Positions 22,906-54,344 of a stretch of 64,000 nucleotides of DNA are shown piece after piece. The stretch's first letter is position 1; each line of letters begins with the position of its first letter. The position numbers and the translations under genes are program-made. The stretch spans positions 855,259 to 919,258 of the forward strand of contig CAVOHR010000001.1 of the NCBI GenBank assembly GCA_963695835.1, given 5' to 3'. Origin of the DNA: an uncultured Solirubrobacterales bacterium (GTDB lineage: Bacteria; Actinomycetota; Thermoleophilia; Solirubrobacterales; 70-9). The notes below the pieces were generated by a model. That model searched no databases. It worked only from the letters and a program-made list of their open reading frames with translations, and was not told the DNA's origin.

Positions 22906-22948
22906 GGCGAGGTAGCTCAGTTGGTAGAGCACACGACTGAAAATCGTG
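22906..22948 (+). pseudogene. tRNA-Phe(GAA) 5' fragment (positions 1-43), attL-like junction
   Basis: ggcgagg-ta-gctc-agttggta-gagc-a-cacga-ctgaaaa-tcgtg, then tRNA structure is lost. Together with 54315-54344 it rebuilds a perfect cloverleaf. Confidence 0.85.
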
Positions 22949-23132
22949 TGGCGTTTCGACGCAAGTGCGGTTTCGGGAGCCGCGCAAACCGCTCTGGCAA
23001 GCGGTTTACGCCCAGATACCTCCAGCGTCGTTTTGGGCGATTTCGGTGGTTTTCCGGGGTCATAGCCACTTCATAGCCACTTCGAGGGCCTTTATGTGCA
23101 GGTAGGGCAGGTTATTGCTATGGTGAAGCCAG

Positions 23133-23477
23133 ATGAAGACCCTGCACTTGGACCCTACGGCCGGCGATCAAGCCGCCCTCGTCACGGAGGAGGTCGACAG
23201 GCTGCTGCGTGAGGGCAAGCGGGTCGCCGTCACCGTGGCCGAGGAGCAGGAGCTGCTTTCGCCCCAGCAGGCCGCCGAGCGGCTCGGCTTCTCCCGCCAG
23301 CACGTGATGCGCCTGATCGGCTACGGCGAGTTGTCCGCGCAGCAGCTGCCAGGTTCGAGCTACTGGAAGGTTCAGCTCGGCTCGGTGCTCGCTTTCGAGG
23401 AGCGCCGCGCCGAAGGCGACCACATCGCAGCCGAGTGGTCACGAGACCTCGACGCGATGGGCGCACCGCCCGAGTGA
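23133..23477 (+). CDS. Excisionase-type HTH DNA-binding protein, probable antitoxin of the downstream PIN protein
   Basis: LSPQQAAERLGFSRQHVMRLIGYGEL HTH. The stop overlaps the next start (GTGA). Confidence 0.65.
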   Translation: MKTLHLDPTAGDQAALVTEEVDRLLREGKRVAVTVAEEQELLSPQQAAERLGFSRQHVMRLIGYGELSAQQLPGSSYWKVQLGSVLAFEERRAEGDHIAAEWSRDLDAMGAPPE

Positions 23478-24040
23478 GCCGTACAGACCCGCCGCGCGCG
23501 GTCCTCGACACCGACATCATCTTCTCGCGCGTCCTGCATGATCTGATCGGGCGCGTCGCCAAACGCCTGCGGCTGCTCGACCTCGTCTGGAGCGAGGAGC
23601 TGCTGGCCGAGGCAAAGCGGTCGCTGATCGAGAAGAAGGGGCTGGCGGAGGAGGCCGCGGCACGCTGGGTCGACTACCTGCCGCAGAACTTCCCCGCCGG
23701 CCGCGTTGACATCTCCGCGGTCCCCGATGACCTTGAGGTTGCATCTCTGACGCGAAACCCCGACGATATCCACGTCTGCGCCCTGGCGATAGCCGGTGGC
23801 GCTGACCTCCTCTTTACCTTCGACCGCGGTTATCTGAAGGAGCCGCTGCAGCTTCATGGCGTCGAAGTTCCCAGTCTCGACCAGTTCCTCGTCGAGCAAT
23901 GCGAAGAGCAGCCGGAGGCTTTCAGGCGGATCGTCGAAAGTCAGGCCGAAGTTTGGGCGGGGGGTCAACCGGTTGACGAGCTGCTGGCGGCGCTCACGCG
24001 AGCAAACGTGCCGAATTTCGCTGCTGTCCTTGGTCCTTGA
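23474..24040 (+). CDS. PIN-domain protein (putative toxin)
   Basis: AVLDTDIIFS (first acidic residue) and NPDDIHVCALAIAGGADLLFTFD are typical of PIN folds. Coupled to the HTH gene. Confidence 0.65.
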   Translation: MSRTDPPRAVLDTDIIFSRVLHDLIGRVAKRLRLLDLVWSEELLAEAKRSLIEKKGLAEEAAARWVDYLPQNFPAGRVDISAVPDDLEVASLTRNPDDIHVCALAIAGGADLLFTFDRGYLKEPLQLHGVEVPSLDQFLVEQCEEQPEAFRRIVESQAEVWAGGQPVDELLAALTRANVPNFAAVLGP

Positions 24041-24104
24041 CCGACCTTTCGCGGTAACGGGCTTCGATATGCGGATCTGACTGGCGAACCGGCGTGGTTG
24101 GTCC

Positions 24105-24725
24105 CTACCGCCGCTTTGACTTGACTCGCTGGGTTTTGGGCTTGATCGCCGCCGCATCGCCACTCCGGGATTCGTCAGGGACGGCGAGCGGAAGCCCCTT
24201 GACCTGCTCGCGCGCCTTGCGGACGAGACGATCGAAGCTCTTGCCGTGGGAACGATTGACCCGCTGCTCCAGCTGCGCGTAGACATCCATGGTCATGGAC
24301 GAGTCGGCGTGGCCGACCTGGGCCATGACGAATTTGACATCGAATTCGTTGGCGAGCAGGGCGATCGAGATGTAGGTGCGCCGCAGGGTGTGGGGAGTCA
24401 CGTTGGGAAGCGGCGGCAGTCCCTTCTCCGCCAGACGCTCGCTTGCCAGGGTCGCAGCTTTCGTGATGATCTGTGCGACCCGCCAGCGCGACATCCGCCC
24501 GCCGCGCAGGTTCGGAACGAGGTAGGCGTTCGGTCCGGTTGGCAGTCCCGCGCGCCGCAGCCGGTCGATGTGCTCGATCACGACCTCGACCAGGTCGGGG
24601 CTCATCTCGACCTCGCGGACGCCGGTCTCGGTCTTCGCGTCGGGGATGCGAAATACGCTCTCGCCGAGATGAGCCCCGACCTGGCGACCTCCCAGATCGG
24701 CTACGGGGAGGCGGACGCGAGCAGC
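24105..24725 (-). pseudogene. Tyrosine integrase, C-terminal catalytic half only (N-terminally truncated)
   Basis: IPDAKTETGVREV, HTLRRTYIS and GHADSSMTMDVYAQ motifs. Upstream of ~24725 the frame is only the shadow of a plus-strand gene. Confidence 0.8.
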
Positions 24726-24737
24726 GAAGGTCGAGGC

Positions 24738-26090
24738 GGTTTTGCCTTCTCTGAGTGGGCTTCCCCGGACTCCTACTTCCTCGGTGTCGCCGACAAGCGG
24801 CTGCTCGTGCTCGCCACCAAGAACAACAGGCTGGTCGAGACCTCCTTCAACCTCGGCAACCACCACCGCGGCTCCGTAAGGAACGCGAGCATCTCCGGCT
24901 GGACCCTGACGGACGCCTACCTCGGCTCGGACGGCCACATCTACGCCTTGCTCGGGCGGGACAACCCGAAGCAGAGCAAGACCCGCGTGGTCATCGAGGT
25001 CCGGCAGTACGACCAGAATCTGCACCTCCTCGGCGTGGCGAAAGTGACCGGAGGCATCGACGAAATAGGCGTCTACGACGGTGTGGGCGACTCCGCTCCG
25101 GACATGGCCCTCTCCGGGACGACCCTCATCGTGCACATGTCCAGGCTGATCTTTCACATCAAGAATGACTGGGCCGATCATCACGAGGTCAATCTCTCCC
25201 TCGCCGTAGACACCACGACGATGACCGCGAGCGAAATCCCCGACAGCCCCTACGCGTCGCACTCCTTCCGTGAGTACATCGGCATCTCGGGAAACGACGT
25301 CTTCTTCATCGACCACGGCGACGCGTATCCGCGCGGCGTGCAACTCGGCGTCATGCCCGGCTATCTCGCTCCTGAACACGGCCGATTCTGGGACACCGTG
25401 GATTGTGGACCGACGGTCGGCACGCCTACCGACCCGGCGACCAGCGAACCACTGGGCGAGGACCCCTCCGATTGTTGGGCGGAACCGCGGCAGAGCGACT
25501 ACATGACCTTCACCGTGCCAAAGGACAACGCCGCCCTGGCCCACCACGACATGTCCAGCGTCAACTACACCGGAGTCACGGTGAACGGCTTCGCGGCGAC
25601 CGAAGCCGATGCGCTGATGGTCGGCCTGTCGGTCCCGAACGGCCACAAGGTAGACGGCGTGGCCTCGCACAGCTCGACCCTGATGGGAAACGTCTACCTC
25701 ACGTCCACCGACACGACGACCGGTGCCACCAGGCTGGTGTGGCTGACCAAGCGCGAGCCCAAGACGAAGAAATTCCTCGAGGAGCAGCCTGCCCTGGTGG
25801 ACCTCGGCAACGGTGACTTCGCGGTGCTCTGGGATGAGTTGCACGGCAAGCAGGTCACGATGAACTACCGGCTGGTGGACGAGACGGGCGAGATCCTAGC
25901 CAGCAAACACTGGACCGGGCACGCCTTCGCCGCGGTCGCGCAGCCCGTGCTGGCCGGAAACCAGATTTTCTGGGTCGGGGAGGGGTCGACCAAGGACAGC
26001 TATGACGTCGCGAACTACCTGTACGGCCTCGATGTCAAGAAACCGACCAAACCCGTGCTTCTGTCGCCGGAGGCCGCCCCGCTTCGTAGG
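24738..26090 (+). pseudogene. Fragment of a large hypothetical (possibly propeller-like surface) protein, no credible N-terminus
   Basis: Protein-like, lower-GC composition from GFAFSEWASPDSYFLGV to YLYGLDVKKPTKPVLLSPE. Both flanking parts of ORF 24246-26231 are Arg/Pro/Gly-rich junk. Confidence 0.45.
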
Positions 26091-26172
26091 CTCGCCGACC
26101 GGTGGCGTCCGTGGGTGACCAGCTGGGTCAGACCGCCCGTCGGGCGGTCTTTCAACAGGAGGACTGGACCAG

Positions 26173-26670
26173 TCAACCGCCGTCTTGTCCGGGGATCATC
26201 GGCACCGCCGACGGGAATACGGACGATCTGAGGGCGCCGCTGGCATGAGCGATCGTCAGATGTTCGTTGCTGGTCTCAGGTTCGATCGTCAATATCACCT
26301 GGCTCCAGTCATCGGGGACACCGTGCGGATGCCTGGGAGAGAAGTATTCGGTCAAGTAGAGCCAACCTTCGGCTTCTTCGGATTCCTCCGGTTCGAGCCA
26401 GCCGCCAGCGCCGAAGAGAATGAGACCTTCGGTGCCAGATGTGTCGGGGTCTCCTGAAAGTGACCAGCTACCTGGTGACAGGAGTTCCTGCTCTCGCCGC
26501 TGGTAGGCTGCGGCGCGCACGATGGGCCGGCGGATATATTCGCGGATGTCGAACGGCGAAGCGAGGGGACCTCGTTCCGCTCTCCCGATGCCCAAGGCCA
26601 GAAACCCATTCCGCAGCTCGGCCAGCCTGAGGCGCCATCTCGTCCGGCTATGTGTGGTGGCCGCCGGCAC
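26173..26670 (-). CDS. Hypothetical protein
   Basis: Acidic, protein-like composition (LILFGAGGWLEPEESEEAEGWLYLTEYF). The start is uncertain because it overlaps the next gene's signal peptide region. Confidence 0.3.
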   Translation of the reverse strand: MPAATTHSRTRWRLRLAELRNGFLALGIGRAERGPLASPFDIREYIRRPIVRAAAYQRREQELLSPGSWSLSGDPDTSGTEGLILFGAGGWLEPEESEEAEGWLYLTEYFSPRHPHGVPDDWSQVILTIEPETSNEHLTIAHASGALRSSVFPSAVPMIPGQDGG

Positions 26671-28058: not shown

Positions 28059-28544
28059 GTGGTCTTCAAGGTCTACAGCGACGGGAGCGGCATGACTGGC
28101 GGCCCTGCCGGCATCGGTTTCGTCGCTTACGTGGACGGCGAGTTCCTGCTCAAAGGGAACCGCGCCGTGGCGAGGGCGACCAACCACCAGGCCGAGCTCC
28201 GCGCGGCCGTGTTCGCGCTTGAGTCGATCCCCGAGGGGCAGGACGTCGAGCTCCTCAGCGACAGCAAGTACGTCGTCGACGGCTACAACACGTACCTCCC
28301 GAAGTGGCGCGAGCGCGGGTGGCCCGACAGCGGCGTCGGCTCCGTCGTCAACCGCGCCCTCTGGAAGCAGCTCATCGTCGCCGCCAAGCGTCACCGCGAC
28401 GTCCGCTTCAGGTGGACGAAGGGGCACGATGGCACCGAGGGCAACGAGCACGCCCACCGGCTGGCCACTCAGGCGCGGCGGGTGGCCGAGGGCCTCGAGT
28501 GGCTCGATGTCGTCCCGGCGGAGGAGCCTCCAACGCTCCCCTGA
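28059..28544 (+). CDS. rnhA: Ribonuclease HI
   Basis: Aligns by eye to E. coli RNase HI: YSDGS (D10), NHQAEL (E48), LSDSKYV (D70), TKGHDGTEGNEHAHRLA (H124 region). His occupies the D134 position. Confidence 0.8.
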   Translation: MVFKVYSDGSGMTGGPAGIGFVAYVDGEFLLKGNRAVARATNHQAELRAAVFALESIPEGQDVELLSDSKYVVDGYNTYLPKWRERGWPDSGVGSVVNRALWKQLIVAAKRHRDVRFRWTKGHDGTEGNEHAHRLATQARRVAEGLEWLDVVPAEEPPTLP

Positions 28545-28684
28545 CCTCGCGGACACAGGCGCGAAAGTTGCCCAGATCGCGGGTGTGATGCGGAGAGGTG
28601 ATTCGGGCCACGGGTCGCACCGGTACGGCCAGCTACCCGCTACCGCTCCGCGCGCAAAGCGGGAGCAGACCCCAGGCAGCACCT

Positions 28685-28794
28685 AGCTCCTCCTGTCGAC
28701 GAGCATCCGCGTCACGCCCGCCTCGCGGGCCACCTCGACGAGCTCATCGTCGGGTCGCTCGCAGAGAAAGAGATGCGTGTGGGAGTCGATCAAT
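28685..28794 (-). pseudogene. TatD-family hydrolase, N-terminal 36-codon fragment
   Basis: LIDSHTHLFLCERPDDELVEVAREAGVTRMLV, then a stop. The first codons form one arm of a 30-bp perfect palindrome. Confidence 0.6.
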
Positions 28795-37386: not shown

Positions 37387-37774
37387 TCCGTTAAGGCTCG
37401 CTGGTTGCAGGGCGCGACACCTTATTTAAATCGAGCGTTCCGCGGAGGCACCGTCGCCCAGCGACGGCGAATGGTAAGGAAGGGGTCACGAGTTCGAGTC
37501 TCGTCGGAGCTTTGGGGAAAGCGAGCACGAGGCGATCTGGATCGTGATCGCCGTGCGGAGGTACCGCGGCATTCAGCGGCAGGTGGCCAATGGAATGACC
37601 CACCGCACCTGCTCTCGCAACTGAGCGAGCGTCTCTCCGACCGTACGTGAGACGCCCGCCTTGGACGATTTGCGAGCGTCTGCTCATCCGACCACAAGTC
37701 GGCCGGGCCGCATCACCTCTGGGCGTGTGTCGCCCATCACGGTTCTCAGGGGGAGGCCACCCCGCTACGGGAAT

Positions 37775-38278
37775 GCCGTCGCGGTCCTCTTCATCGACCT
37801 CGACGAGTTCAAGCTCGTCAACGACACGCTGGGCCACGGCGCCGGCGACGCGCTGCTCGTCGCGGTCGCCGAGCGGCTGAGCGGAGTGGTGCGCGAGGCC
37901 GACACGCTGGGGCGCCTGGGGGGCGATGAGTTCGTCGTCCTCGCCGAGTGCCCGCCGGCAGAGAGCGGGCCGGGGGAGATCGCCGCGCGCGTCACCGGCG
38001 CGTTTACCGAGCCGTTCGCCGTGGAGCGCCTGCCCGAACCGCTGCGCCTCAGCGCCAGCATTGGGGTTGCGAGTTCCGCGGCGGGGTCCTCAGCAGAGCA
38101 ACTGCTCTGCGACGCCGACATCGCGATGTACAGCGCCAAGGGTCAGGTCGGAGGCTGCGCGCGGTATGAGCCGGGGATGGAGCAGGCGCTGGTGGGACGA
38201 AGCCTCCGCTGGCATGACGGGCCCGCGGGCAGCGCCGGAGACGGCGCTCAAGGCGTTGGCACCACCTCGACCCCGTAG
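37775..38278 (+). pseudogene. GGDEF diguanylate cyclase domain fragment (no sensor region and no start of the domain)
   Basis: VLFIDLDEFKLVNDTLGHGAGD...RLGGDEFVVL...DADIAMYSAK. Upstream sequence is non-protein-like. Confidence 0.7.
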
Positions 38279-45136: not shown

Positions 45137-46677
45137 TCGCGCCCCACCCTTGAGGCGGTAAGGCGAGTCTCGATGGCCCGATCGAGCGCACTGACTCGAT
45201 CGGGCAGCACTAGCTGCGCGACGCTCTTGGGACGTGCTCCTTTGACCCTGGGGGCTGAGTGCGGCTCGAGGGTCGCCGCCACCGCATCGTGCTCGCGTGC
45301 GAGCTCGCGCGCCAGATCCCACTGCGCGCAGCTGGGCAGGTCGCGAGCGACCACGATCAGCGGCTGGGCGGGCCCAATCTCAAGGGCCCCAGAGACCGGT
45401 TGCCAGGGGAGGCGGCCTCCCGCCACACCCTCGAAGCGAACCGCCCCGCTGTCCTCAAGCACCTGCCAGGAGATCGTTCGGGCGGCGTCCTCGACGACCT
45501 CCACTCGGCGCTCGTTTTTGCCCCCTTCCGGGTTGTCATCGCTTGAGGCAGGTGTGATGGGCTCTTCCCTCTGGGCCAGCCGCCGAAGTAGCATTCCCAG
45601 CATGGCGGCGCTGCGGCAGAGTGATAGCTCCGCCCGCCGTGCGGCGCGATCAAGCGGATCGACCCCGCCGCGCAGGATTGAGCCCGAGCGGGGCGAGCAG
45701 GCGAGCAGGAAGTCGAGCTCGGCTGGATCCCAGATTCCGGACAGCAGCACGTAGCAAGCGCGCTCGGCACTGAGCAGTCCAGCGTCGATACGCTGCTGCA
45801 GCCTCGCTCGTAGCTCGTCGGGCAGAGGGGTTACGGCGAAGAGCAGTTCGCGAGCTTGGGCGGGCCCGATCGAGGCCGGGTCGTCGGTCCCCAGCTCGAT
45901 GCCGTGCGTTCGCGCGAACTGCCGCAGGCTGGCCGGAACCGCCTGCTCGAGATGCTGCTCGAAGCGAATCTCCATCGTGCCGCCGGAGCGGAAGGCCTCG
46001 GCAAGCGTGAGCGCCGCCAGTGCCCGGTTTCCCTCGTGCGTCGCCACGTGGGGCACCTGGCAGGTCTGCCAGACCTCGACCGCCAAACCGTCGAATTTCG
46101 CCTCATGCCGGTAGGCGGCGAGGCCGATGATGACGTTCTGGGAGGCGATACGCACCGGCCGACATTCGTGGGGGCGCGGCAGGCGCTCACCATGTGACTC
46201 CTCGAACTTGTCGGCAGTCTCGATCATGCGCTGCAAGCCGGCCTCACATGTGGCCTCCTCGGTGGCGATCGTCTCAAGGTAGAGCTGGGCGTCGGTGTCG
46301 AGCGGTGCCCGCTGGTTGCCGGGTGGGACGTCGGTCAGGTGCCAGCGCACGACCTCGCCGACGTTGGGTGCGGGCTCCTCTCCTTGGCGCTCGCATACCA
46401 CGCAGGCAAGCGAGCTGTGGTCGACCGCAGCGATCGGTAGCAGGTCGAGGTCGGCCCGTTGCGCACTAAGCAGCCGCATGGAGCTGAGGGCGCCAAGCAG
46501 GCTCTGCGACTTCGCCCGCTTCGGCGCGAGCAGGAAGGTGCTCTCCTCCAAACCCGGCCGCGCCTCCATCAGGAGCGCGGGAAGTTGCTCTGGAATTCTC
46601 AGGCCGGAGAGGTCCTTGAGTTCGTTCAGTTGATTCTCGGCCGCTGCTGGAAGACTTGATGCCCCCGATACGGCCAT
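45133..46677 (-). CDS. Hypothetical protein (514 aa), operon member
   Basis: Protein-like composition. GAGG lies 4 nt before the ATG, 10 bp after the nuclease stop. No motif recognised. Confidence 0.6.
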   Translation of the reverse strand: MAVSGASSLPAAAENQLNELKDLSGLRIPEQLPALLMEARPGLEESTFLLAPKRAKSQSLLGALSSMRLLSAQRADLDLLPIAAVDHSSLACVVCERQGEEPAPNVGEVVRWHLTDVPPGNQRAPLDTDAQLYLETIATEEATCEAGLQRMIETADKFEESHGERLPRPHECRPVRIASQNVIIGLAAYRHEAKFDGLAVEVWQTCQVPHVATHEGNRALAALTLAEAFRSGGTMEIRFEQHLEQAVPASLRQFARTHGIELGTDDPASIGPAQARELLFAVTPLPDELRARLQQRIDAGLLSAERACYVLLSGIWDPAELDFLLACSPRSGSILRGGVDPLDRAARRAELSLCRSAAMLGMLLRRLAQREEPITPASSDDNPEGGKNERRVEVVEDAARTISWQVLEDSGAVRFEGVAGGRLPWQPVSGALEIGPAQPLIVVARDLPSCAQWDLARELAREHDAVAATLEPHSAPRVKGARPKSVAQLVLPDRVSALDRAIETRLTASRVGRE

Positions 46678-46687
46678 GACCTCTGAC

Positions 46688-47347
46688 TCAGGTCGAAGGG
46701 TTGTTGTCGAAGTGCTGGAGTTCGAATCCGGTGTCCGGATGATCTAGGCCGTAGTCGAACCCCGCCGGTCGGTCCGAGTTGTCGTCGTAGACGAGGTGCA
46801 CCGCGACAGCGGTGCCCGGGTTTGCCGCAGCAATCCTCTCCATCTCGCGCCACTCCTTGCCGAGATTGAGGGCGGCGAGCTGGGGGACGATGTTGATGTC
46901 CATACCGCCGCCCATGCTGTGAGCGAAGACGTGGCCCTTGTGATCACCCTTTGGCGCCGAGGGATGGCCGCTCTGCCGGCTGTTGTCGCGTGACCCCTCC
47001 GGCGTAGTCGATTTGCCTACGCCGCAAACCAGCCGACCGGCAGCTACATCGAAGGTGTAGGTATAGGTGCCCAGCTGTACGTCGACCAGGGTGTTGCCGG
47101 TCTGCTCCTGATATTCGGCGGCCCAATTCCCGGCCAGCTCCGAGGTCAAGGCTGCGCCGTCCGCATTCGTGCTGGGGGAAGCGGTCTGGGTGCTACCGCG
47201 GCTGGACTTGTCGCTGCGGCGCTGAGTGGCACGTGGGGGGACCGAGCGTACGGTCGCCGTCCGCACCGGAGTGGGGGGCGAACTCGGAGCGGCACTGGCG
47301 GCGGCGGTGTGCGCATCGCTGGATGAGGTGGTGTTTCCGCAGGCCAT
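46688..47347 (-). CDS. Non-specific beta-beta-alpha-Me nuclease (Endonuclease_NS_2 / EssD-like domain) with low-complexity N-terminus
   Basis: GDHKGHVFAHSMGGGMDINIVPQLAALNLGKEWREME fits the GH..GG..N..PQ..N..E signature. The first ~70 aa are S/T/A/P-rich and there is no signal peptide. Confidence 0.6.
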   Translation of the reverse strand: MACGNTTSSSDAHTAAASAAPSSPPTPVRTATVRSVPPRATQRRSDKSSRGSTQTASPSTNADGAALTSELAGNWAAEYQEQTGNTLVDVQLGTYTYTFDVAAGRLVCGVGKSTTPEGSRDNSRQSGHPSAPKGDHKGHVFAHSMGGGMDINIVPQLAALNLGKEWREMERIAAANPGTAVAVHLVYDDNSDRPAGFDYGLDHPDTGFELQHFDNNPST

Positions 47348-47509: not shown

Positions 47510-47782
47510 TTCGGCGGACGCGGCCGTGCTCAAACTCCAGGCCGAGGCGAGTCCCAGCCCTTCCGACGTCTGATCGGCAGGCTTTGGCCCTGCTTGTCCT
47601 TGATGGCACAGAGTGGTAGTCCGCCGTTGGTCGCGATCTTTGTTGGTATTGCGGGTGCAGTTTTCATCCACAACTCCCCGGCACCGCCCCGGAACAACCG
47701 GGAAACCGAGCCACTTGAGACCCCGTTAGAATCACCTGCGGGAGCGGCCTGTCATCCGCATTCCCATGCGGTTTGCGGCCAT

Positions 47783-47856
47783 GGCGAGGTAGCTCAGTCA
47801 GGTAGAGCACGCGACTGAAAATCGCGGTGTCGGCGGTTCGATTCCGCCCCTCGCCA
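47783..47856 (+). tRNA. tRNA-Phe (GAA), intact, carried inside the island
   Basis: Acceptor GGCGAGG/CCTCGCC, D arm GCTC/GAGC, anticodon arm CGCGA-CTGAAAA-TCGCG, T arm GGCGG-TTCGATT-CCGCC, discriminator A. CCA is not encoded. Confidence 0.9.
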
Positions 47857-48057
47857 CTCTGAGGTCTTCACCTTTGACCTCCACCTATCTTCACGTTTGA
47901 ACCGGACGAACCGCGATTCGCGGTGGCGTCCGATGTCCATCGACTCCTCCGGGAGCGGCCATTCAACTTCCCCGCCCACGGCCACCGTTTCTCCCCACCG
48001 GTGGCCATCGGTTCTCCCCACGCTTTCTCCCTCGGCGACCGTCCCGGCGAGGCGAAG

Positions 48058-49560
48058 TCAGGTCGGCGCGCTTGCCGCGCCGATCAGGTCGTCCGCGGTC
48101 CGGCGCCGCCTGCGCCGCTTGGGCGCCAGCCCTTCGGCGGCACGCCGCTCATCCTCGGCCTGGCGAGCCGCGAAGGCGTCGGCGACGCGCAGGTTGCGGG
48201 CGACGAAGACGCTGGCGGCGAACAGCGCGATCGGCGCCAGACCCGTCAACCGGCACCAGCCCTTTGAGATGTCGTTGGAGGCCGGGTCCTTGACCGTGGC
48301 GTAGGCGCGCTCGGCGGCGGAGCGCCGCGCGTAGGAGCGGCGGTGCTCCGCAGAGGGGTAGTCGTGTTTCTGTGCGGTCTTGGCGTTGACCGAGGCAGGC
48401 ACCGTGATCGTGCGCTGGGCGCAGCAGGTAGGCGGGTGCTCGGGCGGGGAGATGACCTCCGGACGGGTGTGGCCGAGCTGCATCGACTCAGGCCGCAAGG
48501 GGCAGCGCAGCTTGCCCTGGGCGGCGGGGCAGCCGACGCGGTGGTAGCCGTCTGCGTCATAGCCCGCGAGCGGCGCCAGCTTGTGCTTGGCGAGCTCTGC
48601 GGCCTTGCGGTCGTGGGCGGCAGTCTCGGCCTCCGTAGCGCCGCGGGCGAGCGGTCCCAGTTCCAGCAGCGTGGTCGGCGTCGCCGGGCAGTAGAGCGCC
48701 CCGTTGGCGAGGGTTGCTCCCATGTGGGTTCCCTTCGGCCCACGGTCATGGGGATGCAGGTCCTGGACGAGATTTGCCCCCAGGCGCCGCAGCGGCAGCG
48801 CCCACGTCTCCGCCACCCGGTGGGCATAGCCCGAATCGGCGAGGACGTCGCCGACCTCGATCCCGGCGGCGGCCATCCGCTCCAGCACCGGCACGAGCGC
48901 CGGCGGCGGGTCGACCCCGCAGCTCGTGAGCCCGATGCGGCGCACCAGCTCCGCGACGGCGGGGCCGCGCTCCTCCTTGACGGCCGTGACGACCTGCAGG
49001 TAGTAGCCGTAGAAGGCCTCGTCGCGCTCGCCGGGCGAGTTGCCGCGCCGGTGTCCCCAGGTGGCCTCGGGGTCAGCGCAGCGCTCGCCGCCCTTCGGCG
49101 GTGGGCAGGAGAACGTCTCCAGGTCGGTCCAGTCGACGGCGTAGGAGCTCGTCTCGGGCTTCCCGCAGAGCTCGACGCTCGCCTCCAGCAGGGCGTCGAG
49201 GATCTCCGAGAGCTCCTCGCAGGGCTCCCCGTCGGGCTCGGCCTTGGCCAGTACCCTCGCCACGAGCCCGAAGGTGCGCTCCACCTGGCGGTAGGTGAGC
49301 CGGTGGGGGCCGTCCTTCCACTCGGCGATCACCCCGAGCCGCCTCTGATCTGCCTGGGGCAGCGCGCAGAGCGCCTCGTGCACCCGGCTCAGGTGCGCGG
49401 GGCGCCCGTCGACGGCGACCAAGAGCATCCCCACGAGCAGCGTGCGCACCGAGAGCTGGCGCCGCCGCGCCCCGACCGGCAGCATCGCCTCGATCCGCGG
49501 GGCGATGCCCGAGCGCTCGACGACTCCCTCCAATCGCTCAAGCTTCGCCTCAGCCTCCAT
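48058..49560 (-). CDS. DDE transposase (IS4/IS5-like fold), copy 1
   Basis: AVDWTDLETF, VLADSGYA and YARRSAAERAYATVKD...RLTGL are consistent with a D-D-E triad and an IS5/IS1182-style C-terminal tail. Family not assigned. Confidence 0.7.
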   Translation of the reverse strand: MEAEAKLERLEGVVERSGIAPRIEAMLPVGARRRQLSVRTLLVGMLLVAVDGRPAHLSRVHEALCALPQADQRRLGVIAEWKDGPHRLTYRQVERTFGLVARVLAKAEPDGEPCEELSEILDALLEASVELCGKPETSSYAVDWTDLETFSCPPPKGGERCADPEATWGHRRGNSPGERDEAFYGYYLQVVTAVKEERGPAVAELVRRIGLTSCGVDPPPALVPVLERMAAAGIEVGDVLADSGYAHRVAETWALPLRRLGANLVQDLHPHDRGPKGTHMGATLANGALYCPATPTTLLELGPLARGATEAETAAHDRKAAELAKHKLAPLAGYDADGYHRVGCPAAQGKLRCPLRPESMQLGHTRPEVISPPEHPPTCCAQRTITVPASVNAKTAQKHDYPSAEHRRSYARRSAAERAYATVKDPASNDISKGWCRLTGLAPIALFAASVFVARNLRVADAFAARQAEDERRAAEGLAPKRRRRRRTADDLIGAASAPT

Positions 49561-50461
49561 GGCCTCCTCCGAGCAATGCGACGGCGGTCTCCTCCTCGGT
49601 CTCGGGCAGCTCGGCCACCAAGTCGCCGAGCCGCTGGGAGCAGCGCAGCCCGGCCGCGTCCATGAACGCCCGCAGGCCGATCAGCTCGGCGCACTCGCAA
49701 AGCCAGCTCGCCCGCAGCCGCCCGGCCTCCAGGCGCGGCAGCGAGGCGTCCTTGCCAAGCGCGGCGTTCAAGGCGTCGCTGAGGTTGCGCCGCCCCGAGC
49801 TCTCGCCGCCGAGCAGGTAGCCCCGCCCGGCGAAGCGGGCGGCTTCCTCCAGGGGCGAGTGGAAGTGGGCCAGCACAGGCACCGCCCGCTCCCTGCGCCC
49901 CGAGACGCAGACCACGAGCCCCCCCGAGCGCCGGATGACGTCGCGCCCGCGCACGTGGCGAAGCTCGGCCCCGATCAGTCCCGCCCCCGCCCCCAGACAG
50001 ACAAGCGCGGTGGCGCGCATCCGCCGTGCCTCGGTCGGCTGCGCAGCGGCGAGGCGCAGGAAGCCCTCGATCTCCGCCTCCCCGTAGGGGGACTTGGCGC
50101 GCTCGCGCGGCAGCGGCGCCAGCTGCGGGGAGGGATGAGCCCGATGGACACGGGCCAGCGCCCGCAGGTTGGTGCGCAGGGTGCGTCGCGTCGCCGCGGA
50201 GACCGCCGGGCAACCCGTGAGGACGAAGCGCTCGATCGTCGCCTCCGCCAGCAGCGCCTCGGCGGAGAGCTCCATCCCCACCGACTTGCCGAAGGCGGCC
50301 AGCCGCCCGGCGGCGTAGAGCAGCGCCTTGGCCCGTTCGCGCCGGCGCGGAGCAGCCCGCCTCACCGCCGCACGGGCGAAGGCCCCCGCCTCGGGGGAGA
50401 GCGAGGCGGGGGCGTAGGCGGCGATCGCCGCTGCTGCGAGGTCGCCCTCTCGGGGACTCAT
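49550..50461 (-). CDS. Tyrosine-recombinase-like protein, apparently degenerate active site, copy 1
   Basis: Integrase-fold pattern RATALVCLGAGAGLIGAELRHVRGRDV...VSGRRERAVPV...GRLRASW. Box I Arg, the first His and the terminal Tyr are not evident. Overlaps the transposase start by 11 nt. Confidence 0.55.
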   Translation of the reverse strand: MSPREGDLAAAAIAAYAPASLSPEAGAFARAAVRRAAPRRRERAKALLYAAGRLAAFGKSVGMELSAEALLAEATIERFVLTGCPAVSAATRRTLRTNLRALARVHRAHPSPQLAPLPRERAKSPYGEAEIEGFLRLAAAQPTEARRMRATALVCLGAGAGLIGAELRHVRGRDVIRRSGGLVVCVSGRRERAVPVLAHFHSPLEEAARFAGRGYLLGGESSGRRNLSDALNAALGKDASLPRLEAGRLRASWLCECAELIGLRAFMDAAGLRCSQRLGDLVAELPETEEETAVALLGGGHGG

Positions 50462-50517
50462 GGTATCCGACAGTAGAATTACTATCGGACAGACCGACGT
50501 AGGATCGCAAGTCACCC

Positions 50518-50883
50518 ATGAACGAGAGCCCCGAGGCCCGCCTGCGCGCGCTCGCCGCCGAGCTCGCCGAGATCGACTTCGCCCTGCCGGGGACGATCAA
50601 CGTGGCGATGAACCGCTGCGGCAAGCCCAACTGCGCCTGCAAGGCCGACCCGCCCAAGCTGCACGGCCCCTACGTCACCTGGACGCGCAAGGTCGAGGGC
50701 AAGACCGTCACCCGCCGCCTCTCAGCCGAGCAGCTGGAGCGCTATCGCCCTTGGTTTGAGAACCGCAGGCGCCTGCGCGCGCTCACTGCCGAGCTCGAGG
50801 CGCTCTCCCTCGAGGTCGCCGAGCAGGCCGAGGGCTGGGCGCCTGCCGAGCCGCGCCGTCGCGGCGAACGACGCGGCCGCTGA
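50518..50883 (+). CDS. Small Cys-motif protein (DUF6788-like), copy 1
   Basis: GTINVAMNRCGKPNCACKADPPKLHGPYVTWTRKVEGKTVTRRL. Divergent from the recombinase-like gene across a 56-bp spacer that holds an imperfect palindrome. Confidence 0.6.
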   Translation: MNESPEARLRALAAELAEIDFALPGTINVAMNRCGKPNCACKADPPKLHGPYVTWTRKVEGKTVTRRLSAEQLERYRPWFENRRRLRALTAELEALSLEVAEQAEGWAPAEPRRRGERRGR

Positions 50884-51187
50884 GCACGCGCCGGTGTGGC
50901 CCCGCGCCGCTTAACGTGTGGTCGCTGCGAAGACTGTCCGCGGAATCCGCATCGGTATGCGGCTGGTGGCAAACGTGAAGACCTCACTCTGAGGTCTTCA
51001 CCTTTGACCTCCACCTATCTTCACGTTTGAACCGGACGAACCGCGATTCGCGGTGGCGTCCGATGTCCATCGACTCCTCCGGGAGCGGCCATTCAACTTC
51101 CCCGCCCACGGCCACCGTTTCTCCCCACCGGTGGCCATCGGTTCTCCCCACGCTTTCTCCCTCGGCGACCGTCCCGGCGAGGCGAAG

Positions 51188-52690
51188 TCAGGTCGGCGCG
51201 CTTGCCGCGCCGATCAGGTCGTCCGCGGTCCGGCGCCGCCTGCGCCGCTTGGGCGCCAGCCCTTCGGCGGCACGCCGCTCATCCTCGGCCTGGCGAGCCG
51301 CGAAGGCGTCGGCGACGCGCAGGTTGCGGGCGACGAAGACGCTGGCGGCGAACAGCGCGATCGGCGCCAGACCCGTCAACCGGCACCAGCCCTTTGAGAT
51401 GTCGTTGGAGGCCGGGTCCTTGACCGTGGCGTAGGCGCGCTCGGCGGCGGAGCGCCGCGCGTAGGAGCGGCGGTGCTCCGCAGAGGGGTAGTCGTGTTTC
51501 TGTGCGGTCTTGGCGTTGACCGAGGCAGGCACCGTGATCGTGCGCTGGGCGCAGCAGGTAGGCGGGTGCTCGGGCGGGGAGATGACCTCCGGACGGGTGT
51601 GGCCGAGCTGCATCGACTCAGGCCGCAAGGGGCAGCGCAGCTTGCCCTGGGCGGCGGGGCAGCCGACGCGGTGGTAGCCGTCTGCGTCATAGCCCGCGAG
51701 CGGCGCCAGCTTGTGCTTGGCGAGCTCTGCGGCCTTGCGGTCGTGGGCGGCAGTCTCGGCCTCCGTAGCGCCGCGGGCGAGCGGTCCCAGTTCCAGCAGC
51801 GTGGTCGGCGTCGCCGGGCAGTAGAGCGCCCCGTTGGCGAGGGTTGCTCCCATGTGGGTTCCCTTCGGCCCACGGTCATGGGGATGCAGGTCCTGGACGA
51901 GATTTGCCCCCAGGCGCCGCAGCGGCAGCGCCCACGTCTCCGCCACCCGGTGGGCATAGCCCGAATCGGCGAGGACGTCGCCGACCTCGATCCCGGCGGC
52001 GGCCATCCGCTCCAGCACCGGCACGAGCGCCGGCGGCGGGTCGACCCCGCAGCTCGTGAGCCCGATGCGGCGCACCAGCTCCGCGACGGCGGGGCCGCGC
52101 TCCTCCTTGACGGCCGTGACGACCTGCAGGTAGTAGCCGTAGAAGGCCTCGTCGCGCTCGCCGGGCGAGTTGCCGCGCCGGTGTCCCCAGGTGGCCTCGG
52201 GGTCAGCGCAGCGCTCGCCGCCCTTCGGCGGTGGGCAGGAGAACGTCTCCAGGTCGGTCCAGTCGACGGCGTAGGAGCTCGTCTCGGGCTTCCCGCAGAG
52301 CTCGACGCTCGCCTCCAGCAGGGCGTCGAGGATCTCCGAGAGCTCCTCGCAGGGCTCCCCGTCGGGCTCGGCCTTGGCCAGTACCCTCGCCACGAGCCCG
52401 AAGGTGCGCTCCACCTGGCGGTAGGTGAGCCGGTGGGGGCCGTCCTTCCACTCGGCGATCACCCCGAGCCGCCTCTGATCTGCCTGGGGCAGCGCGCAGA
52501 GCGCCTCGTGCACCCGGCTCAGGTGCGCGGGGCGCCCGTCGACGGCGACCAAGAGCATCCCCACGAGCAGCGTGCGCACCGAGAGCTGGCGCCGCCGCGC
52601 CCCGACCGGCAGCATCGCCTCGATCCGCGGGGCGATGCCCGAGCGCTCGACGACTCCCTCCAATCGCTCAAGCTTCGCCTCAGCCTCCAT
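51188..52690 (-). CDS. DDE transposase, copy 2
   Basis: Identical 500-aa product to 48058-49560. Confidence 0.7.
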   Translation of the reverse strand: MEAEAKLERLEGVVERSGIAPRIEAMLPVGARRRQLSVRTLLVGMLLVAVDGRPAHLSRVHEALCALPQADQRRLGVIAEWKDGPHRLTYRQVERTFGLVARVLAKAEPDGEPCEELSEILDALLEASVELCGKPETSSYAVDWTDLETFSCPPPKGGERCADPEATWGHRRGNSPGERDEAFYGYYLQVVTAVKEERGPAVAELVRRIGLTSCGVDPPPALVPVLERMAAAGIEVGDVLADSGYAHRVAETWALPLRRLGANLVQDLHPHDRGPKGTHMGATLANGALYCPATPTTLLELGPLARGATEAETAAHDRKAAELAKHKLAPLAGYDADGYHRVGCPAAQGKLRCPLRPESMQLGHTRPEVISPPEHPPTCCAQRTITVPASVNAKTAQKHDYPSAEHRRSYARRSAAERAYATVKDPASNDISKGWCRLTGLAPIALFAASVFVARNLRVADAFAARQAEDERRAAEGLAPKRRRRRRTADDLIGAASAPT

Positions 52691-53591
52691 GGCCTCCTCC
52701 GAGCAATGCGACGGCGGTCTCCTCCTCGGTCTCGGGCAGCTCGGCCACCAAGTCGCCGAGCCGCTGGGAGCAGCGCAGCCCGGCCGCGTCCATGAACGCC
52801 CGCAGGCCGATCAGCTCGGCGCACTCGCAAAGCCAGCTCGCCCGCAGCCGCCCGGCCTCCAGGCGCGGCAGCGAGGCGTCCTTGCCAAGCGCGGCGTTCA
52901 AGGCGTCGCTGAGGTTGCGCCGCCCCGAGCTCTCGCCGCCGAGCAGGTAGCCCCGCCCGGCGAAGCGGGCGGCTTCCTCCAGGGGCGAGTGGAAGTGGGC
53001 CAGCACAGGCACCGCCCGCTCCCTGCGCCCCGAGACGCAGACCACGAGCCCCCCCGAGCGCCGGATGACGTCGCGCCCGCGCACGTGGCGAAGCTCGGCC
53101 CCGATCAGTCCCGCCCCCGCCCCCAGACAGACAAGCGCGGTGGCGCGCATCCGCCGTGCCTCGGTCGGCTGCGCAGCGGCGAGGCGCAGGAAGCCCTCGA
53201 TCTCCGCCTCCCCGTAGGGGGACTTGGCGCGCTCGCGCGGCAGCGGCGCCAGCTGCGGGGAGGGATGAGCCCGATGGACACGGGCCAGCGCCCGCAGGTT
53301 GGTGCGCAGGGTGCGTCGCGTCGCCGCGGAGACCGCCGGGCAACCCGTGAGGACGAAGCGCTCGATCGTCGCCTCCGCCAGCAGCGCCTCGGCGGAGAGC
53401 TCCATTCCCACCGACTTGCCGAAGGCGGCCAGCCGCCCGGCGGCGTAGAGCAGCGCCTTGGCCCGTTCGCGCCGGCGCGGAGCAGCCCGCCTCACCGCCG
53501 CACGGGCGAAGGCCCCCGCCTCGGGGGAGAGCGAGGCGGGGGCGTAGGCGGCGATCGCCGCTGCTGCGAGGTCGCCCTCTCGGGGACTCAT
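52680..53591 (-). CDS. Tyrosine-recombinase-like protein, copy 2
   Basis: Identical product to 49550-50461. Confidence 0.55.
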   Translation of the reverse strand: MSPREGDLAAAAIAAYAPASLSPEAGAFARAAVRRAAPRRRERAKALLYAAGRLAAFGKSVGMELSAEALLAEATIERFVLTGCPAVSAATRRTLRTNLRALARVHRAHPSPQLAPLPRERAKSPYGEAEIEGFLRLAAAQPTEARRMRATALVCLGAGAGLIGAELRHVRGRDVIRRSGGLVVCVSGRRERAVPVLAHFHSPLEEAARFAGRGYLLGGESSGRRNLSDALNAALGKDASLPRLEAGRLRASWLCECAELIGLRAFMDAAGLRCSQRLGDLVAELPETEEETAVALLGGGHGG

Positions 53592-53647
53592 GGTATCCGA
53601 CAGTAGAATTACTATCGGACAGACCGACGTAGGATCGCAAGTCACCC

Positions 53648-54013
53648 ATGAACGAGAGCCCCGAGGCCCGCCTGCGCGCGCTCGCCGCCGAGCTCGCCGA
53701 GATCGACTTCGCCCTGCCGGGGACGATCAACGTGGCGATGAACCGCTGCGGCAAGCCCAACTGCGCCTGCAAGGCCGACCCGCCCAAGCTGCACGGCCCC
53801 TACGTCACCTGGACGCGCAAGGTCGAGGGCAAGACCGTCACCCGCCGCCTCTCAGCCGAGCAGCTGGAGCGCTATCGCCCTTGGTTTGAGAACCGCAGGC
53901 GCCTGCGCGCGCTCACTGCCGAGCTCGAGGCGCTCTCCCTCGAGGTCGCCGAGCAGGCCGAGGGCTGGGCGCCTGCCGAGCCGCGCCGTCGCGGCGAACG
54001 ACGCGGCCGCTGA
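53648..54013 (+). CDS. Small Cys-motif protein (DUF6788-like), copy 2
   Basis: Identical product to 50518-50883. Confidence 0.6.
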   Translation: MNESPEARLRALAAELAEIDFALPGTINVAMNRCGKPNCACKADPPKLHGPYVTWTRKVEGKTVTRRLSAEQLERYRPWFENRRRLRALTAELEALSLEVAEQAEGWAPAEPRRRGERRGR

Positions 54014-54271
54014 GCACGCGCCGGTGTGGCCCCGCGCCGCTTAACGTGTGGTCGCTGCGAAGACTGTCCGCGGAATCCGCATCGGTATGCGGCTGGTGGC
54101 AAACGTGAAGACCTCACTCTTTTTTCGAAGTGGCAATGGATCCGTTTCTCATAGCCACAATCCACCCGAAACCACCCGGAAGAACAGGAATCCAGGCCGT
54201 CTGCGGGTTGCAAGGATGGCTCGGTGACGATCCCGATTTTCCGCATTCCAAAGCGGTTTGCGGCCGATCCT

Positions 54272-54344
54272 GGCGAAGGAAATCGATTCTGGAGCCTGTG
54301 GCCTGAAAATCGTGGTGTCGTGGGTTCGATTCCCACCCTCGCCA
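54272..54344 (+). pseudogene. attR-like hybrid: degenerate tRNA-like 5' part plus authentic tRNA-Phe 3' half
   Basis: 54303-54344 (ctgaaaa-tcgtg-gtgtc-gtggg-ttcgatt-cccac-cctcgcc-a) completes the 22906 fragment. 54272-54302 (ggcgaagg...gagc...) only faintly resembles a 5' half. The 26 nt upstream match the upstream of the intact tRNA at 47755-47780. Confidence 0.75.

Follow-up and report, generated by a model that had tools for sequence, protein, structure and literature searches.

A genomic island that splits a tRNA-Phe gene in a Solirubrobacterales genome and carries a tRNA-Phe gene of its own

The window, i.e., the whole 64-kb stretch of DNA that was analyzed, stems from an uncultured Solirubrobacterales bacterium and contains two parts of one tRNA-Phe(GAA) gene (22906-22948 and 54303-54344), which are 31.4 kb apart (Table 1). 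A 12-bp direct repeat, CTGAAAATCGTG, ends the 5' part (22937-22948) and opens the 3' part (54303-54314); three matches were found versus 0.18 expected, when a copy with one mismatch inside the tRNA gene of the island is counted. Joining 22906-22948 to 54315-54344 yields a tRNA-Phe(GAA) of 73 nt, which is accepted by ARAGORN. The fold of the joined RNA (-33 kcal/mol, z -3.5) has cloverleaf-like acceptor, D, and T arms and a predicted non-canonical anticodon arm. The proposal of an earlier, sequence-only reading that the two halves fit as one tRNA was thereby confirmed, and 23 related Solirubrobacterales species have, at this locus, an intact tRNA-Phe that does not differ from the joined gene. 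ARAGORN found a single tRNA within the 64 kb, the intact tRNA-Phe of the island.

Neither junction encodes a working tRNA, as had been claimed. ARAGORN did not detect a tRNA-Phe at attL, at attR, or in the reconstructed attP, and the right junction had no tRNA match in Rfam. The left junction (22906-23000) reached an Rfam tRNA score of 34.4 bits, which slightly exceeds the gathering score (29) and stems from the perfect 5' half. Past the core it continues with TGGCGTTTCGACGC, without a T arm or an acceptor strand; what is aligned as the "T arm" consists of a hairpin whose loop has about 19 nt, the acceptor stem contains two non-pairs, and the T arm is not credible. Given that the score passes the threshold, a crippled transcript from the left junction is formally conceivable. 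The common core is too short for a functional tRNA to be restored at either attL or attR. In a conventional tRNA-restoring element attP contains the 3' part of the target tRNA and the gene is rebuilt at attL, and the island shows neither of these features.

Table 1. Features of the split tRNA-Phe locus (positions in the window)
Feature	Position	Strand	Remarks
Orphaned 5' part of the host tRNA-Phe(GAA), attL junction	22906-22948	+	Acceptor 5' strand, D arm, anticodon arm; left core copy at the 3' end; identical to the 5' part of intact relatives
P' arm of the former attP of the island	22949-23132	+	Begins TGGCG where the tRNA has GTGTC
HTH_17/excisionase-like DNA-binding protein	23133-23477	+	Pfam HTH_17 2.3e-6; PHROG excisionase families ~2e-4 to 7e-4
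PIN-domain protein, toxin-like	23435-24040	+	Pfam PIN_3/PIN
Dead integrase, C-terminal 157-185 aa of a ~497-aa tyrosine recombinase	24105-24662	-	Pfam Phage_integrase positions 53-169
Perfect 20-nt inverted duplication where the integrase gene is cut off	24590-24609/24665-24684 (24590-24684)
Cargo	24669-47347		Genes listed below, plus several proteins without family
Cargo: RNase H	28059-28544
Cargo: TIG-domain protein	32484-34799
Cargo: S8 peptidase	34807-37386
Cargo: GGDEF protein	37661-38278
Cargo: 1767-aa DEAD helicase with S1 domains	38790-44093
Cargo: NS_2 endonuclease	46688-47347
Promoter-like region and leader of the island tRNA	47700-47782	+	Presumed promoter function; alignment with relatives
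Island-borne intact tRNA-Phe(GAA), presumed replacement	47783-47856 (ARAGORN call ends 47857)	+	ARAGORN; Rfam 72 bits
Tandem pair of a 3130-bp IS-like element	47855-54120		Later insertion, exactly at the 3' end of the island tRNA
P arm of the former attP	54121-54302	+	Contains a 26-nt leader-like segment (54240-54265), ending 37 nt before the core
attR junction: right core copy, then 3' part of tRNA-Phe	54303-54344	+	Variable loop, T arm, acceptor 3' strand
Degenerate remnant of a different, conventional element	54345-57750		3' of the tRNA; outside the island

The integrase gene is located 1.2 kb from the left junction, and its truncation had been noticed correctly: only residues 340-496 of about 497 are left. 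The fragment has kept the motif HxLRxxY..GH..Y, the first catalytic Arg is missing, as are all of the N-terminal DNA-binding domains, and a search for the N-terminal part elsewhere in the window found none. It is catalogued as a 166-aa product (P0001) on a contig of 1.43 Mb. The fragment is 72% identical to residues 340-496 of the integrase of a related element (locus L026), and full-length homologues elsewhere suggest that the integrase was responsible for the insertion of the island. The HTH_17 protein may be a directionality factor or, alternatively, the antitoxin of the adjoining PIN protein; a homologous HTH_17/PIN pair is present in locus L023.

Capsid, tail, terminase, and portal families were not found among the ten largest island proteins with Pfam and PHROGs, NCBIfam supplied no names for ten proteins of the island and the IS-like element, and PADLOC did not match the cargo to a defence system. 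IMG/VR scans with the split junction, the core plus P' arm, and the integrase family were empty. The element would thus be better called a genomic island than a temperate phage, and the term "lysogeny" would not apply to it. The IS-like copies (47861-50984 and 50991-54114) are bounded by CACTCT at all three junctions, have the terminal inverted repeat GAGGTCTTCAC(C/G)TTTG, and differ from one another at a single base (50276/53406).

For comparison, 80 related loci were retrieved via the flanking helicase, for which an exact-product look-up returned no record. An intact tRNA-Phe lies about 2 kb downstream of the helicase in nearly all of them, and in 23 of the 80 it is identical to the joined halves of the window, so that the predicted empty site does exist in related genomes. 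Seven further loci (L060, L085, L086, L088, L090, L092, L095) have the 5' half of the host gene broken at the same base (...CTGAAAATCGTG|TG...), and a decayed remnant with the same breakpoint in L005 is the eighth. A homologous tyrosine integrase is encoded within about 250 bp of the junction in each of the seven loci searched for it (all but L005), and the five full-length junction integrases are 52-59% identical to that of L026. All six loci with enough sequence (L060, L085, L086, L088, L090, L095) encode an intact tRNA-Phe of their own, which is located 0.6-1 kb past the integrase gene. The cargo of the related elements includes restriction-modification genes and ATPases. These loci show that the splitting strategy generalises beyond the island of the window. 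The integrase contexts of L081 (no tRNA nearby) and L082 (conventional core plus 3' half) were also considered as splitting cases and were uninformative, and protein look-ups that should extend L085, L090, and L095 returned 120 proteins, none identical to their integrases.

Two further explanations were weighed. An assembly artefact, i.e., a chimeric join or a mis-scaffolded repeat, has to be considered for a metagenome-assembled source, and assemblers can create exact tandem IS pairs. However, junctions of this type are present in nine assemblies that stem from different projects, both junctions of the window are precise and have the core in common, the integrase fragment lies on the 1.43-Mb contig, and the IS copies differ by one base, which makes an artefact extremely improbable. 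Two halves of one tRNA that are far apart on the same strand are also reminiscent of a true split tRNA gene, with halves that are transcribed separately and then joined, as in Nanoarchaeum. The chance of this is close to negligible, because the halves overlap by 12 nt like att-site duplications rather than abutting, the gene is uninterrupted in related species, the 3' part lacks a native promoter context, and an intact tRNA-Phe is present.

Conventional elements occur at the same locus (L003, L004, L009, L011, L023, L031, L069, L026) and rebuild the tRNA at attL. L026 has the same integrase type as the splitting elements; its integrase gene follows 113 bp after the rebuilt tRNA, and the T stem supplied by the element has a 1-nt insertion. 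Conventional tRNA-targeting elements with a crossover in the anticodon loop are known from actinomycetes, e.g., pSAM2 (tRNA-Pro) and pSE211 (tRNA-Phe). The island resembles such elements in the target position, with identity starting in the anticodon loop CTGAAAA, in the integrase gene close to the left junction, and in the terminal direct repeats. In contrast, a conventional element brings along the entire 3' part of the tRNA (identity over about 42 nt) and restores the gene at the left junction, whereas the island has 12 bp of identity and rebuilds none.

The tRNA-Phe of the island differs from the host gene at the anticodon-stem pair 28:42, which is G-C in the island and A-U in the host. 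In an alignment of eight element tRNAs the perfect cloverleaf is kept, with compensatory changes at four pairs and 100% of the cells paired; at 28:42 the two strands match each other in all eight (G-C or U-A) and differ from the host. The region upstream of the gene contains TAGAAT (47727-32) as well as a leader hairpin plus GCGGTTTGCGG (47755-80), and it is conserved 5' of the element-borne tRNA-Phe in L060, L083, L085, L086, L088, and L090. A strict scan for sigma-70 promoters and terminators around the gene had no matches. The reported recurrence of the upstream sequence before the right junction was verified, 24 of 26 nt being identical between 47755-47780 and 54240-54265. It had also been stated that the island tRNA would be near the right core without the IS pair; it is indeed close, but the gap is about 186 bp and not about 155 bp.

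This arrangement is relevant to the alternative that the tRNA was rebuilt at the right end, with the element giving the promoter and the 5' half, in which case the "island tRNA" of the relatives would be a hybrid right junction. The intact tRNA of L060-type loci is just about 2.7 kb from the left junction, leader-like sequences as before the island tRNA of the window precede the tRNAs of the relatives, and in L083 the island is upstream of an intact tRNA-Phe, all of which would fit. Nevertheless, the true right junction of the window is separate, 186 bp past the island tRNA when the IS pair is ignored, and its island side is not tRNA-like. In addition, a hybrid formed by crossover in the core would bear the 3' strand of the host and be mismatched at 28:42, at odds with the matched pair in all eight element tRNAs. 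Rebuilding at the right end is therefore very unlikely.

The attP site is a reconstruction, because neither an excised circle nor a free attP was found in the IMG/VR scan with the core plus P' arm. Its P arm is known from the window alone, and no further complete element could be recovered together with its two ends. The P' arm contains GCGGTTTnCG-type motifs at 22983-22992 (minus strand) and 23001-10, a near-copy, GCGGTTTCGG, at 22967-76, and two CATAGCCAC repeats (23061-69 and 23072-80), and it shares 76% identity with the remnant in L005. In the window and in L060, L086, L088, and L090, the arm motif GCGG(G)TTTnCG is located about +51 to +53 relative to the core, as it is in the canonical L026, where the tRNA 3' half plus 18 nt occupy the place of the 50 nt that follow the core in the splitting elements. 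The like distance indicates that these 50 nt were replaced in place and not deleted.

It has been considered that a conventional integration rebuilt the tRNA at the left and that a later deletion or rearrangement removed the 3' half on the island side, which was tolerated thanks to the tRNA-Phe of the island. The island is old and damaged, as seen from the truncated integrase with its inverted duplication and the IS insertion, and the relative L026, which does rebuild the tRNA, already has the insertion in the supplied T stem. A deletion would, however, shorten the distance between core and arm motif, which is kept; eight other loci with diverged flanks are broken at exactly the same base; and the own tRNA-Phe is found in a similar integrase-to-tRNA cassette in all six related loci with enough sequence. 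We thus regard a later deletion as unlikely.

The sequence-only reading had seen a faint resemblance to a tRNA in the island-derived flanks and had derived attP from a decayed duplicate of the tRNA of the element. The resemblance is not above chance in the window (shuffle test, p ~0.27 on the 5' side and ~0.06 on the 3' side); clearer T-arm remnants are retained in the relatives L092 and L095. The derivation of attP from the island's own tRNA is thus only partly supported: the 24/26 leader match and the spacing speak in favor of it, while the tRNA-likeness of the flanks, being non-significant, does not.

Taken together, the most probable explanation, to which we assign a probability of roughly 80%, is that the island disrupted the host tRNA-Phe within its anticodon arm without rebuilding it, supplies a tRNA-Phe of its own, and was immobilised later, i.e., that the logic of tRNA-dependent lysogeny operates in a family of non-phage islands. 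The 23 empty sites and the recurrence of the breakpoint at eight further loci, of which six have their own tRNA-Phe, bear out this central claim of the earlier reading. The split, the empty site, the short core, the lack of a tRNA at either junction, the island tRNA, and the recurrence in relatives are demonstrated; the point at which the strands cross, the expression of the island tRNA, and the dependence of the host on it are inferred. The region 22949-54302 (31.4 kb) would then be an integrative genomic island, with the chromosomal tRNA-Phe(GAA) gene as the site at which a lambda-type tyrosine integrase inserted it. The stretch in common between attP and the tRNA would have been just 12 bp, comprising the anticodon loop CTGAAAA and the 3' strand of the anticodon stem, TCGTG. 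[quoted passage not shown] Later, the integrase would have lost its first ~339 residues and the IS-like element would have landed, twice in tandem, just 3' of the island tRNA, and this damage would have rendered the island immobile.

The host may depend on the island tRNA. Precise excision would restore the host gene, and thus such a dependence would hold chiefly in the present state with a dead integrase. A more far-reaching scenario combines three assumptions: that the island copy is the sole functional tRNA-Phe, that the 28:42 difference blocks self-recombination, and that attP arose from a duplicate of the island tRNA. This combination is tentative, and we consider it rather doubtful as a whole. 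If it holds, no deletion of the island tRNA would be survivable after the decay of the integrase, and a selfish island would be locked in. The difference at 28:42 (core position 11) would stop the integrase from recombining attP, attL, and attR with the island tRNA. The attP would have begun as a duplicate of the island tRNA gene and its leader, and its tRNA parts would have been lost under relaxed selection. The locus would then be a worked example, outside phages, of how short-core, tRNA-disrupting att sites arise from tRNA-restoring ones.

The arrangement had been treated as unprecedented, which is not the case. The same logic, "tRNA-dependent lysogeny", has been shown experimentally for actinobacteriophages, together with the requirement for the element-borne tRNA (Guerrero-Bustamante and Hatfull, mBio 2024, PMC10865867). 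The phages (Fionnbharth/K4, LeBron/L, Cain/K6, Gaia/X, and Gordonia CQ2 and DL phages) target tRNA-Lys-TTT, tRNA-Ile2-CAT, and tRNA-Leu-CAA (PMC10865867). The island shares with them the features of tRNA-dependent integration, namely an integrase and an attB that overlaps a tRNA gene, a short core without a rebuilt tRNA, and an element-borne tRNA. Both groups have a tyrosine integrase with an N-terminal arm-binding domain, arm-type sites that flank attP, an attB inside the tRNA gene, a core of 8-17 bp in the phages and 12 bp here, no functional tRNA rebuilt, close relatives with similar integrases that rebuild the tRNA and lack an own copy, and an actinobacterial host. They differ in that the phages are temperate, whereas the island has no matches to phage structural or packaging genes and is dead due to its truncated integrase; that the target is tRNA-Phe-GAA and the host belongs to the Solirubrobacterales; and that the requirement for the element tRNA is experimental in the phages and presumed here. 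The same paper cites prophage Lj965 of Lactobacillus johnsonii, a Firmicute prophage, as leaving its target tRNA unrebuilt and carrying a cognate tRNA, and the likeness to the island consists of these two features as reported there (PMC10865867). Therefore, the island does not represent a new principle; new are the tRNA-Phe target, the Solirubrobacterales host, and an island without recognisable phage genes.

The phage study left open how far compensated tRNA-disrupting integration has spread beyond actinobacteriophages (PMC10865867). The locus and its eight relatives show the same strategy in uncultured soil Thermoleophilia, in island-like elements, and with tRNA-Phe as a new target. Island finders that rely on a rebuilt tRNA and a displaced 3' fragment will miss such elements or misplace their boundaries, and the only tRNA-Phe listed in a genome annotation will be a "foreign" one. 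The related attP sites range from conventional through partly decayed to fully decayed, and they could serve for studying the evolution of att sites.

The remnant downstream of the tRNA 3' part contains a Fic/DOC domain and a second integrase fragment (56291-56710, minus strand). The idea that this fragment and 24105-24662 are halves of one split integrase gene was rejected, because the two map to one and the same part of the catalytic domain (Pfam positions 8-86 and 53-169, respectively) and their sequences differ. The remnant also includes an IS21-like fragment, as read by eye.

The sequence-only reading had proposed that a host tRNA-Phe gene is split by the 31.4-kb island, and this was confirmed. 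The 5' part of the gene ends with CTGAAAATCGTG, and the 3' part begins with the same 12 bp (the core), followed by the variable loop, the T arm and the acceptor strand. Joining of the two parts yields a 73-nt tRNA-Phe(GAA) that is accepted by ARAGORN, and no tRNA-Phe was called by this program at the left junction, the right junction or the reconstructed attP. The only tRNA called in the 64-kb window is the tRNA-Phe(GAA) carried by the island, which has an Rfam score of 72 bits. When one mismatch is allowed, three copies of the 12-mer CTGAAAATCGTG are counted, compared to 0.18 expected, and the third is the variant within the island tRNA. With 34.4 bits, the left junction exceeded the Rfam gathering score, which is 29. 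According to the alignment, the intact 5' half accounts for this score. The "T arm" of the junction is formed by two inverted island motifs that pair around a loop of about 19 nt, and two positions of the acceptor stem do not pair. No tRNA match was obtained with Rfam at the right junction.

The flanking MrfA-like helicase was used to fetch 80 loci from species-representative genomes, all of them from uncultured Solirubrobacterales or related Actinomycetota. In nearly all of them, the helicase gene is followed on the same strand, about 2 kb downstream, by an intact tRNA-Phe(GAA), and in 23 loci its sequence is identical to that of the joined halves, so that the uninterrupted site anticipated for relatives was indeed found. 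The upstream region native to the chromosomal tRNA-Phe (…GCTAGCCTT…, followed by a leader hairpin) also matches the region upstream of the left part in the window. Therefore, the two parts represent one chromosomal gene that was interrupted by 31.4 kb. A true split tRNA gene is unlikely, because the halves overlap by 12 nt and the gene is present in one piece in the relatives. In one related locus, L013, the tRNA-Phe at the chromosomal position has an upstream region of the element type (CGTTAGACT…, leader) instead of the native type, and it lies about 2 kb farther from the helicase gene than usual. Either the native tRNA region may have been replaced by that of an element, or the element tRNA may have originated in this lineage. 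The reading frame adjoining the tRNA in the window, previously designated as a GH15 gene, has a Pfam GH15 match that spans just 62 residues of the 427-position model and a poor codon-position G+C signal, and it may be a pseudogene or frameshifted.

Features of the split tRNA-Phe locus, in order along the window, and of related loci
Locus	Feature	Positions	Details
Window	MrfA-like helicase	18313-20589	flanking gene
Window	"GH15 gene"	21367-22842	491 aa
Window	tRNA-Phe 5' part	22906-22948	
Window	left non-coding arm		184 bp, first from island left end
Window	HTH_17/excisionase-like gene and PIN gene		after left arm
Window	tyrosine integrase fragment		minus strand, last 157-185 codons, after PIN gene
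Window	20-nt inverted duplication	24590-24609 / 24665-24684	perfect
Window	ORF without family match	24669-26231	520 aa
Window	cargo		about 23 kb; RNase H, TIG-domain protein, S8 peptidase, GGDEF protein, NS_2 nuclease, 1767-aa DEAD helicase with S1 domains
Window	minus-strand block	38790-47347	part of cargo; DEAD/Helicase_C protein (1767 aa, three S1 RNA-binding domains), 410-aa and 514-aa proteins without family match, NS_2 endonuclease
Window	26-nt leader segment	47755-47780	precedes island tRNA
Window	island tRNA-Phe(GAA)	47783-47857	after cargo
Window	IS-like element, tandem pair	47855-54120	after island tRNA; 3130 bp per copy
Window	right arm		182 bp, island right end
Window	leader segment, second copy	54240-54265	in right arm
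Window	tRNA-Phe 3' part	54303-54344	
Window	remnant right of the tRNA	54345-57750	
Window	second integrase fragment	56291-56710	within remnant
L005	arm remnant	16485-16650	
L013	tRNA-Phe region	16015-16182	
L026	rebuilt tRNA-Phe	7865-7939	
L060	hairpin after element tRNA	13688-13740	
L085	element tRNA-Phe	9701-9775	
L087	tRNA-Phe 5' part	323-360	

Splitting of this gene is not confined to the window. In the related locus L060, the host 5' part ends with ...CTGAAAATCGTG|TGCC..., followed by a homologous integrase gene, a small antitoxin-like ORF and a PIN-like ORF (both read by eye). At a distance of 2.6 kb, this locus has an intact tRNA-Phe of distinct sequence. A metagenome scan for tRNA-Phe 5' parts followed by any base except G returned 12 loci, of which five are ordinary tRNAs from other taxa and six are split junctions of the window kind (L085, L086, L088, L090, L092, L095). 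All six have TGCT directly after the core and a homolog of the L026 integrase (see below) within about 250 bp, the full-length versions being 52-59% identical. Five of them also have an intact tRNA-Phe of their own, located 0.6-1 kb past the integrase gene. The sixth, L092, has a truncated integrase like that of the window, and its fetched sequence contains no tRNA. In L005, an arm remnant 76% identical to the left arm of the window is joined to a tRNA part truncated on its 5' side, with acceptor and D stem missing and the core mutated to CTGAAAAGCGTG. No tRNA is present within this 22-kb locus; the copy in this other species is older and has decayed further. Taken together, L060, the six scan loci and L005 make the window one of at least nine instances. 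An assembly artefact is thus unlikely, as the same junction type is found in nine independent assemblies and the contig of the window is 1.43 Mb long. In L087, the remaining locus of the 12 from the scan, the 5' part of the tRNA-Phe of a different host (acceptor GGCTGGG) breaks off right after CTGAAAATCGTG and is followed by unrelated sequence (AGCATCGC…). No integrase was found on this 1.1-kb contig, which may be artefactual or contain yet another type of element.

Conventional elements are present at the same locus. Seven loci (L003, L004, L009, L011, L023, L031, L069) contain an intact tRNA-Phe and, 1.5-6.7 kb further on, a second CTGAAAATCGTG plus 3' half, and L062 has the same layout, its core being the variant CTGAAAATCGCG. 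Elements that rebuild the gene after crossover in the anticodon loop classically leave such a signature. In the conventional locus L026, an integrase gene of the same type as the window fragment (67% identity) lies 113 bp after the rebuilt tRNA-Phe, together with excisionase-like, M48 peptidase and TraG/VirD4-like genes. The T stem supplied by the L026 element has a 1-nt insertion (GTGCGG…CCCAC), and therefore the rebuilt tRNA may already be impaired; L026 may represent a step on the way to splitting.

The breakpoint base is identical in all nine splitting loci, and the sequences that follow have diverged. In the window, L060, L086, L088, L090, L005 and also the conventional L026, a motif, GCGG(G)TTTnCG, follows the core at a distance of about 51-53 nt; in L026, the 50 nt between core and motif consist of the tRNA 3' half plus 18 nt. 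Four of its five matches in the window lie at the island ends or just upstream of the island tRNA, compared to 0.8 expected. A second repeat, (C/G)A(T/G)AGCCAC, is found at about +105 to +135, and both repeats look like arm-type integrase sites. The constant spacing between core and motif indicates an in-place replacement of the tRNA 3' half and not a deletion. T-arm remnants are still recognizable in L092 (…TGCTGTCTGGTTCAAC…) and L095 (…GGCGGTTCCCCGC…). Later loss of a rebuilt 3' half is unlikely in view of the recurrent breakpoint and the conserved spacing. It is also unlikely that the tRNA is rebuilt at the right end with a 5' half supplied by the element, because a separate true right junction is present in the window and the two stem strands match each other in every element tRNA.

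The attP had been suggested to be a decayed duplicate of the island tRNA. One part of the argument held: the 26 nt preceding the island tRNA are repeated in the right arm with 24 of 26 identities (z = 7.9 versus shuffles), the distance from segment end to core being 37 nt in the arm versus 34 nt in the tRNA gene. The segment is part of the conserved leader of element tRNAs, and its recurrence supports the view that the right arm was derived from a tRNA-Phe gene that had such a leader. It also includes the putative arm-type motif and could thus be an integrase site present in both places. The other part, a resemblance of the island-derived flanks to the tRNA halves, was not above chance (p about 0.27 and 0.06, shuffles). 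Descent of attP from the island tRNA is plausible but unproven.

Element-borne tRNA-Phe genes were compared for eight loci (the window, L060, L083, L085, L086, L088, L090, L095). Every cloverleaf pair is kept in all eight, with compensatory changes at four pairs. They share an upstream region (…CTATAGAAT…, followed by the leader TCCGCTTTC..GA.GC.GTTT..GG) that is unlike the native chromosomal promoter region. A strict sigma-70 scan called no promoter at the island tRNA, and hence we infer its expression. The anticodon-stem pair 28:42 is G-C or U-A in all eight element tRNAs versus A-U in the host, and the element tRNA consequently differs from the core at position 11 (T in the core, C or A in the element tRNAs). 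The element tRNA may thereby be shielded from the integrase of its own element, but common descent would explain the difference just as simply. In L060, the element tRNA is followed by the hairpin GGAGGGAAG…CTTCCCTCC, as is the rebuilt tRNA in L026, L010 and L050, and in L085 it is followed by a CTTTCTACCTGCAAAT motif that resembles the one in the second family of conventional elements. Capture of a rebuilt left junction may thus have been the origin of the element tRNAs.

The G+C content of the island is 0.64-0.69 versus 0.70-0.74 in the left flank. Pfam and PHROGs revealed no phage structural or packaging family among the scanned island proteins, including the ten largest, and PADLOC gave no match among the scanned proteins. 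The integrase had been described as truncated, and this was borne out: the fragment is 72% identical to residues 340-496 of the 497-aa L026 integrase, and the window contains no other piece of this gene. Neither the first catalytic arginine nor any of the N-terminal DNA-binding parts is present, and therefore the integrase is dead. The cut coincides with the perfect inverted duplication; both copies encode EMSPDL, and the 520-aa ORF begins inside the second one. The region 24590-24684 thereby suggests a rearrangement of the fold-back type. The minus-strand block, for which PADLOC gave no matches, looks like a candidate defence or nucleic-acid-processing module.

A system of this kind, tRNA-dependent lysogeny, has recently been described (Guerrero-Bustamante and Hatfull, mBio 2024; PMC10865867). 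A tyrosine integrase uses an attB within a tRNA gene, and attP shares just 8-17 bp with it, so that the tRNA is not rebuilt, and the functional hallmark of the system is that the element tRNA is required; in close phage relatives with longer cores the target tRNA is rebuilt and a phage-borne copy is absent. The targets listed are tRNA-Lys-TTT, tRNA-Ile2-CAT and tRNA-Leu-CAA, and the phages concerned infect Mycobacterium and Gordonia. The paper also cites a Lactobacillus prophage as another likely case, and according to the authors the prevalence elsewhere needs investigation. All structural characteristics of this system are found in the window, which differs from it in target, host lineage and element type; a requirement for the island tRNA would be the functional counterpart. 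The feature is real, as first read, and represents a further member of this kind of integration system, the principle of which is already known. Among the matches listed for the term "tRNA-dependent lysogeny", titles and abstract openings mention no case of tRNA-Phe or of a non-phage island. As far as the searched literature shows at this level, the extension to tRNA-Phe, Solirubrobacterales and non-phage islands is new, and so is the graded series from conventional to fully decayed att sites.

The IS-like element following the island tRNA forms an exact tandem pair, the copies of which differ at one base (50276 C versus 53406 T). Its insertion point coincides exactly with the final two bases of the island tRNA, CACTCT is present at all three junctions, and the terminal inverted repeat is GAGGTCTTCAC(C/G)TTTG. 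Each copy has three ORFs: one of 500 aa that is DDE-like by eye, one of 321 aa, and one of 121 aa (DUF6788). The first two have no Pfam or NCBIfam match and weakly match hypothetical proteins on Streptomyces and Rhodococcus plasmids (25-29% identity). Directly after the tRNA 3' end, the window contains TTTTCCCCCTGCAAAT, which also follows the tRNA-Phe 3' end in L003, L004, L009, L011 and L021; the first four additionally have a displaced 3' copy. Because of this shared sequence, the 3' part in the window may stem from an earlier conventional element that has left only a low-G+C remnant. Besides the second integrase fragment, a Fic/DOC domain is present in the remnant, and inspection by eye showed an antitoxin-like ORF and an IS21-like fragment.
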